A stretch of 64,000 nucleotides of DNA, taken from the NCBI RefSeq assembly GCF_050920415.1, contig NZ_CP169309.1. One strand, 5' to 3'. A program made the position numbers and the translations under genes. The stretch is from Escherichia coli (GTDB lineage: Bacteria; Pseudomonadota; Gammaproteobacteria; Enterobacterales; Enterobacteriaceae). Of this stretch, positions 29,847 to 30,547 are shown one piece after another. The notes under the pieces are model-generated. The model worked only from the letters and a program-made list of their open reading frames with translations, did not search any database and was not told where the DNA came from. Position 1 is the first letter of the stretch; every line of letters begins with the position of its first letter.

Positions 29847-30547
29847 TTATGAACTCCTTGTGAAATTATCAACTGCTGTTTTACGAACAACCCGTCGTTA
29901 ATCCCCGACAGGTTAGAGTGTGATGCGGCTCACATCAGGAACCACACCCTTTTCTTTATTCGAGTTACAGGCACACGTAATTAGCACCTACCGAAAAACT
30001 CTTTTATGGTGTTTAAATATATTTTTAGTCAATTTCAGAACACGGTCACATAAGCTAAAAATATATCAACATCAACAGTAGAATTATCCATAACGTATCC
30101 TTACCCCCATAAAAACCTACAATTTCGTCAAAAATCAATTATTACAACACTTACTTCACCATCGTTCCGGCACGCAATTAAGATATTCCTTAAAGAAATT
30201 TCTTATGATGTATTGCTAGCAATTAATTAATTTATAAAACCATACATAAAACTTATTAATCAATTTAATAAACACATATAAATCAATATGTTATGGCGCT
30301 TTATTGGCCGTAAAATTATATTCGCCAAGTCTATAAATACCAAATTGATTTCACTATCATGTATTAATAATGAAGGATACATCTCTTTCAAAAATATAAA
30401 TAGTTCTTTTAATATTTTATTTCACGAGTAGAATACCGATCACAACAGAAGGAAGGTTACATTATCTAACTGCCACTGAAACGGTATTGTCGGTATTTGT
30501 ATGCAGTACGAAAATGCTGTGCTCATGGCCTGAACGGGAACATTTTT
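29847..30547. promoter_or_regulatory. ~700-bp AT-rich divergent control region between the hcp-vgrG operon and the tssB core operon
   Basis: No credible ORF; very AT-rich with A/T tracts; lies between divergent first genes. Confidence 0.5.

Follow-up and report, generated by a model that had tools for sequence, protein, structure and literature searches.

What controls a T6SS cluster that carries no activator gene of its own, and where on the DNA does that control act? This question is raised by a 701-bp gap between two divergent operons in a 64-kb stretch of Escherichia coli DNA (hereafter the window, meaning this whole stretch). The system concerned, T6SS-2, is the most prevalent E. coli T6SS according to one recent study (PMC13141884). 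Its silence in the laboratory blocks work on what it does in competition and in virulence, and the gap is where that silence appears to be set. We find that the gap is very likely an H-NS-silenced bidirectional control region, with CRP and CpxR inputs on its hcp side.

An earlier note on this DNA had picked out the gap as a large AT-rich control region. Both the observation and the inference drawn from it were right, yet they are already in the literature for the T6SS-2 gap. Because this gap is already under experimental study, the finding in itself adds nothing new. Our comparison across loci does offer modest new leads, namely the conservation of spacer length and composition, a candidate tssB promoter, and two leader helices. 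The resulting comparative map (proximal modules, tssB -10 candidate, allele-family CRP site, leader helices, and spacer) could guide mutagenesis.

The hcp-tssB gap of the T6SS-2 island

The locus is the aspV-tRNA T6SS island, called T6SS2 or T6SS-2 in papers on APEC, ExPEC, EAEC, and EHEC. It lies between yafV and tRNA-Asp (aspV)/dnaQ and is absent from 90% of E. coli genomes. The gap was found in 552 of 5426 complete E. coli genomes, at 93 to 99.7% identity and on the chromosome in every case. To its left, hcp ('hcp2B' type; 29328 to 29846, minus strand; start codon at 29844 to 29846 by ORF call) heads the hcp-vgrG effector operon, which runs leftward, and the RefSeq protein WP_001142963.1 is annotated at the equivalent place in related strains. 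To its right lies tssB (30548 to 31051, plus strand). The tssB operon (30548 to 50136, plus strand) comprises tssB-C-E-F-G, tagH, tssJ-K-L, clpV (tssH), vasI, tssA, tssM, vasL (with a VasL domain), and hcp2A. This gene order rests on a Pfam scan and on the RefSeq annotation of MFDS1022581, the best relative, whose tssB-tssC DNA is 100% identical to that of the window.

The gap itself (29847 to 30547, unstranded) is the T6SS-2 divergent control region, or 'bidirectional promoter', and corresponds to t6sP in EHEC. At 32.7%, its GC content is below that of the 64-kb window (51.5%) and of the tssB operon (56%), and it reaches 26.9% in a core at 30000 to 30449. The ten lowest-GC stretches of 450 bp in the window all lie within the gap. 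It is also the biggest gap between annotated features across 40.7 kb annotated around the island in the near-identical MFDS1022581 genome. The region had been described as rich in A/T tracts. Its AT-richness is borne out, as it has the lowest GC in the 64 kb, whereas tracts of at least four bases exceed what composition gives only weakly (16 versus 11.9 ± 3.2 in shuffles).

H-NS silencing of orthologous T6SS-2 regions

Experiments in orthologous strains have found derepression in the absence of hns, binding by CRP and by CpxR-P, and silent reporters in the wild type. The hcp2B/vipA2 region of the APEC/ExPEC T6SS2 (strains TW-XM and DE719) is the same locus and allele family as that of the window, with an identical Hcp and, in APEC XM, a gap 96% identical to ours. 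It is likewise divergent, is repressed by H-NS and bound by CpxR-P, and does not respond to Fur or iron (PMC5874247, PMC6534853). In APEC TW-XM (the same strain as ExPEC XM), hcp2B-vgrG2 and vipA2...hcp2A are transcribed divergently, deletion of hns raises clpV2, hcp2A, and hcp2B, Fur and iron are without effect on T6SS2, and 50% duck serum induces its expression (PMC5874247).

In EHEC O157:H7, T6SS transcripts are higher in an hns mutant (PMC5363993). A 2026 study that names the EHEC hcp3-tssB gap the 'bidirectional promoter' (t6sP) found gfp/mCherry reporters to be almost null in the wild type; without hns the tssB side was weakly active and the hcp3 side better, and deletion of hns alone yielded little protein (PMC13141884). 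Several transcription start sites and H-NS binding in the EHEC gap are mentioned there and credited to Kim et al. 2022, and CsrA motifs 8 nt ahead of start codons are discussed (PMC13141884). The weak tssB-side activity and the small amount of protein without hns indicate that other controls exist, and part of the hns effect could be indirect.

These measurements are the opposite of strong constitutive activity in both directions, the outcome that the earlier note had set against its own reading. Its proposal that this is a type of region bound by nucleoid-associated silencers agrees with the derepression of orthologous T6SS-2 on hns deletion (PMC5874247, PMC5363993, PMC13141884), and H-NS would be expected to occupy the window's allele directly. 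Likewise, the prediction that regulation comes from chromosomal factors is in keeping with H-NS, CpxR, and CRP all being chromosomal (PMC5874247, PMC6534853, PMC12360894).

Two marks of an H-NS-silenced region are found here. The DNA is horizontally acquired, as its island position indicates, and its AT content is well above that of the host over several hundred base pairs. In Salmonella, Brunet and colleagues reportedly found in 2015 that H-NS silences the SPI-6 T6SS (cited in PMC5363993). That system, likened here by description, is thus also an H-NS-silenced acquired T6SS, but it differs in T6SS subtype and gene order.

Beyond composition, the sequence offers little. The high-affinity H-NS 10-mer is not enriched: allowing up to two mismatches, it has four matches in the gap where 2.2 ± 1.4 are expected, and no match is closer than that. 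Curvature was calculated with a wedge model using approximate parameters, together with AA/TT helical phasing, and composition-matched shuffles served as the control. Peaks at 30009 to 30034 and 30099 to 30128 exceed the window's 99th percentile under this approximate model. However, the mean and maximum curvature of the gap equal those of the shuffles, and there is no 10- to 11-bp phasing of A-tracts (P ~ 0.2). Thus, neither of the predictions that the earlier note had proposed as checks, curvature and H-NS motifs, rises above what AT content gives. With no special bending or nucleation motif, AT-richness is the only sequence argument for H-NS.

We propose that H-NS, probably with StpA, most likely coats the AT-rich DNA and keeps both promoters off under laboratory conditions. 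Two weak sigma-70-type promoters would lie in conserved modules of ~115 to 165 bp beside hcp and tssB and fire outward, with ~420 bp of very AT-rich DNA between them. CRP (at 29919 to 29934) and CpxR-P (~190 to 210 bp upstream of hcp) would bind the hcp-proximal side and presumably modulate silencing or work against it. A further, post-transcriptional layer of control probably comes from conserved leader stem-loops and from ribosome-binding sites that contain GGA.

Conservation across enterobacterial loci

Orthologous gaps were gathered by protein search and contig look-ups, and a scan of a genome collection with TssB gave three loci. The comparison took in four further E. coli of the same allele family, the O157-type variant (two strains), E. 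whittamii, Pseudocitrobacter, two Salmonella lineages, Superficieibacter, Buttiauxella, Trabulsiella, Enterobacter, Phytobacter, Citrobacter koseri, Hafnia, and Kluyvera. Every locus compared has the divergent hcp/tssB architecture. Among 13 gaps (the window and 12 others), length ranged from 523 to 724 bp, mostly 680 to 705 bp, and GC from 29 to 35%, while the flanking coding DNA was 50 to 56% GC where measured.

Four-fold degenerate sites in hcp, tssB, and tssC served as a neutral reference. Conservation is above this reference in the 114 bp next to hcp and in the 163 bp next to tssB, whereas the central 424 bp are at or below the neutral level. Identity to E. whittamii is 0.95 in the hcp-proximal module, 0.94 in the tssB-proximal module, and 0.80 in the center, against 0.82 at four-fold sites. 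The corresponding values for Pseudocitrobacter are 0.72, 0.73, and 0.49, against 0.67.

A center that changes as fast as four-fold degenerate sites or faster, with no common motif, curvature, or H-NS motif above chance, is also what neutral noncoding filler of an acquired island would look like. The hns phenotype would then be indirect, with H-NS not acting on the gap DNA, and hns deletion is indeed broadly pleiotropic. However, filler should drift in size, and length (mostly 680 to 705 bp) and GC (29 to 35%) have been kept in the 13 loci, which span several genera, despite the turnover of sequence. Furthermore, hns affects reporters of the EHEC region carried on plasmids, and no other stretch of the 64 kb is as AT-rich as the gap. 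We regard neutral filler as improbable and retain the H-NS-silenced control region as the preferred reading.

Within E. coli, two alleles were compared with that of the window. The gap between EC042_0224 and EC042_0225 in EAEC 042 belongs to the window's allele family; at 702 bp and with an identical CRP site at -80.5, it shows no structural difference. The t6sP region of EHEC O157:H7 is an orthologous divergent hcp/tssB gap of 696 bp and 33% GC, and shares with the window the hairpin of the hcp leader as well as the -10 motif and leader helix on the tssB side. Nevertheless, the EHEC allele is deeply diverged: its tssBC DNA is ~72% identical, its central gap is not alignable, the left CRP half-site is lost, and 12 nt are inserted before the tssB Shine-Dalgarno sequence. 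The O157-type variant also has an extra gene for a 74-aa hypothetical protein between tssB and tssC (3666 to 3890 in locus L011, 4251 to 4475 in locus L012). In the window, tssB and tssC are 22 bp apart and this gene is absent.

A central spacer conserved in length and composition

The central AT-rich spacer (29961 to 30384, 424 bp, unstranded) shows no excess over shuffles of 12-mers common to several genera. That it keeps its length and composition, and not its sequence, fits DNA that is recognized by AT content, and the spacer may serve as a platform for H-NS. It holds a single perfect IHF consensus, AATCAATATGTTA, at 30281 to 30293 near its middle (0.10 expected), the CAAT core of which is invariant in seven aligned sequences, the O157 type included. 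A near-consensus sigma-70 site (TTGGTA-17-TATAAT, 10 of 12 matches) lies on the minus strand at 30343 to 30315, facing hcp from ~470 bp upstream. It is kept, with TATGAT as its -10, in other E. coli of the allele family and not beyond, and could be a distal or a spurious promoter.

Could the gap hide an unannotated gene for a small protein or small RNA? The sigma-70 site just described would suit such a gene, and three small ORFs of 43 to 53 aa are present. Close relatives, however, have stops or frameshifts in all three, which leaves the gap functionally ORF-free. An Rfam scan of the gap returned chance-level microRNA matches only, a generic promoter scan found two sites where 3.7 are expected from shuffles, and the central region is not conserved. 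We consider a hidden gene highly improbable. The description of the gap as ~700 bp of ORF-free DNA between divergent hcp and tssB therefore holds, with an exact length of 701 bp and no small ORF conserved. A control region silenced by H-NS remains the reading that we pursue below.

Probable CRP and CpxR inputs on the hcp side

The Shine-Dalgarno sequence of hcp, AAGGAG (29854 to 29859, minus strand), lies 7 nt upstream of the ATG and is invariant in 14 orthologous loci. Farther upstream is a CRP binding site, TGTGAGCCGCATCACA (29919 to 29934, unstranded), centered 80.5 bp upstream of the hcp ATG. It matches the CRP consensus with a perfect core, TGTGA-N6-TCACA, which is the sole perfect core in the 64 kb, with 0.03 expected in the gap. 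We located this site independently in a scan, and it is the same in sequence and position as one known from EAEC 042. There, a CRP ChIP-seq peak contains TGTGAGCCGCATCACA at a distance of 80.5 bp upstream from the start codon of EC042_0225, and EMSA shows strong binding (PMC12360894). Note that a fragment of ~200 bp round the EAEC 042 site had no promoter activity in either orientation in a crp+ or crp- K-12 background (PMC12360894). The window's allele family keeps the site intact, and Pseudocitrobacter and E. whittamii depart from it by at most one mismatch. The other genera have lost it, as has the O157 type, which is without the left half-site.

The CpxR input is known from APEC DE719, where CpxR-P shifts an hcp2B promoter fragment in EMSA and deletion of cpxR lowers hcp2B expression (PMC6534853). 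By mapping the published primers, we place this fragment at ~29826 to 30056 of the window. In the original work, the 230-bp fragment drives lacZ in DH5alpha, and CpxR-P binding is gone once the distal stretch is removed (PMC6534853). The activity of this fragment, like the inactivity of the EAEC 042 one, counts against our reading. This distal end, needed by CpxR-P, corresponds to 30033 to 30056 (minus strand). Within it, the window reads GTGACC, as do most aligned E. coli and E. whittamii, whereas GTAATC, nearer to the GTAAA half-site, stands in APEC XM and in the DE719 primer. Thus, CpxR control may be lineage-specific. The downstream vgrG region, rearranged in the window by an IS21-family element, is a second point of difference from XM and DE719. 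As a separate observation, the CpxR-P-required stretch is bracketed by a perfect AT-only inverted repeat of 12 bp (30017 to 30028 and 30055 to 30066; ATATATTTTTAG / CTAAAAATATAT) with a 26-nt gap. The repeat is kept in E. coli and E. whittamii and not in Pseudocitrobacter or the O157 type.

Covariation points to a candidate stem-loop in the hcp leader (29890 to 29913, minus strand), in which a 7-bp stem (A-CCUGUC with GACGGG-U) encloses a 10-nt loop, GGGGAUUAAC. Among 13 distinct sequences, 88.9% of cells are paired, whereas sliding the partners gives 25 to 46%. In four pairs both sides have changed, and the score for covariation, 0.41, compares with 0.31 ± 0.04 for shuffles. The stem-loop occurs once in the window and may act in the control of hcp.

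The tssB-proximal module holds a candidate promoter and leader helix

On the tssB side, a motif of AAAAAG..CTTTT, followed after ~20 nt by GTA(G/A)AAT, is kept across most of 15 loci. We interpret this motif as a putative sigma-70 promoter with a predicted start near 30441. The candidate (30394 to 30434, plus strand) would consist of an A-rich UP-like stretch, a weak -35 (CTTTTA, 30406 to 30411), a 17-bp spacer, and the -10 TAGAAT (30429 to 30434).

Downstream, RNAalifold predicts a long-range helix in the tssB 5' leader (30472 to 30529, plus strand), which would pair GCCA (30472 to 30475) with UGGC (30526 to 30529) and ACGGUAU (30481 to 30487) with AUGCUGU (30514 to 30520). In 15 sequences, 88.8% of cells are paired, versus 25 to 52% with slid partners, and GC/GU and AU/GC exchanges occur. 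As a single sequence, the tssB leader folds no more stably than shuffles (z = -0.07). The helix, too, may have a regulatory function.

A bolder reading, which we put forward tentatively and hold to be rather unlikely, is that the T6SS-2 subtype carries a portable silencing handle, that is, an AT-rich spacer of ~650 to 700 bp selected for its length and composition and not for its sequence. In this same proposal, both leader stem-loops would be undescribed post-transcriptional elements that determine stability or are recognized by CsrA, Hfq, or small RNAs. If true, such leader control could in part account for the EHEC result that deleting hns raises mRNA but gives little protein in LB.

The cluster has no regulators of its own

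Several types of control were compared with the locus. The large T6SS cluster of Vibrio cholerae runs vipA-vipB ... vasG, vasI, vasJ, vasK, vasL and is controlled by VasH and sigma-54. The window's cluster has this gene order without vasH and without a -24/-12 element; clpV directly adjoins vasI. Neither vasH nor ppkA nor pppA was found in the tssB operon by annotation and Pfam, and the Pfam scan found no Sigma54_activat, Pkinase (Ser/Thr kinase), or PP2C phosphatase domain in the cluster. Annotation and domain search thus agree with the earlier claim that the cluster has no vasH-type activator, kinase, or phosphatase. Of the components of PpkA/PppA/Fha threonine-phosphorylation control, only TagH is present, and the kinase and phosphatase are missing from the cluster. 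TagH (35865 to 37145) is an FHA protein with a T6SS_FHA_C domain, an orphan here in having no Ser/Thr kinase or phosphatase alongside it.

The sci-1 (T6SS-1) promoter of EAEC is governed by a Fur/Dam epigenetic switch, with Fur a chromosomal global regulator. Both E. coli T6SS promoters are thus under chromosomal regulators, but the T6SS-2 gap has no Fur box with six or fewer mismatches and a single GATC, at 30438. The ops element GGCGGTAGnnTG of RfaH has no match with two or fewer mismatches in the gap. Consensus scans of the gap for Fis, Lrp, OxyR, PhoP, ArcA, and RcsB gave nothing above shuffled expectation. The absence of sigma-54 elements, Fur boxes, and ops sites excludes control of the V. 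cholerae, sci-1, and RfaH types. Also highly improbable are sigma-54-dependent promoters served by an enhancer-binding protein encoded elsewhere, for instance the LafK-like protein of the adjacent Flag-2 locus: the gene order does match the V. cholerae cluster minus vasH and a gene with a sigma-54 interaction domain does stand at the window's left edge, but the best match to TGGCAC-N5-TTGCW in the gap has three mismatches and is not conserved, matches of this kind being rarer than in shuffles (1 versus 1.85), and the conserved tssB-side motif reads as a sigma-70-type -10, TAGAAT.

Other features of the window

Around the H-NS-silenced control region proposed here, several further features were recorded. 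Positions 1 to 7240 are part of a Flag-2 lateral flagellar locus (fliM/N-like, fliP, fliQ, fliR, flhB, and flhA), and the LafK-like gene with its sigma-54 interaction domain (~1 to 594, minus strand) is truncated by the left edge of the window. At the other end, a 260-aa hypothetical protein with no Pfam match is encoded on the minus strand at 50478 to 51263, between the terminal hcp and tRNA-Asp (51593 to 51669).

The leftward operon has been rearranged. Directly downstream of hcp, vgrG (27426 to 29111, 561 aa) is shortened by the IS21-family element (istA/istB, ~25.5 to 27.5 kb). At the equivalent of 25548 to 29111, MFDS1022581 has ~11 kb extra, with two more vgrG, PAAR genes, Tae4, and an M23-type peptidase effector, which suggests that the window has lost DNA through recombination between copies of vgrG. 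The intergenic region between hcp and vgrG (29112 to 29327, 216 bp) is the counterpart of 'h3R' in EHEC, for which a terminator or mRNA-stabilizing hairpin and a separate vgrG promoter have been reported (PMC13141884). Farther left, a group II intron reverse transcriptase/maturase (ltrA; 17988 to 19504) and ISAs1 remnants adjoin genes for a Tle1-like phospholipase effector and DUF3304 proteins, which indicates that the accessory end of the island has been heavily remodeled.
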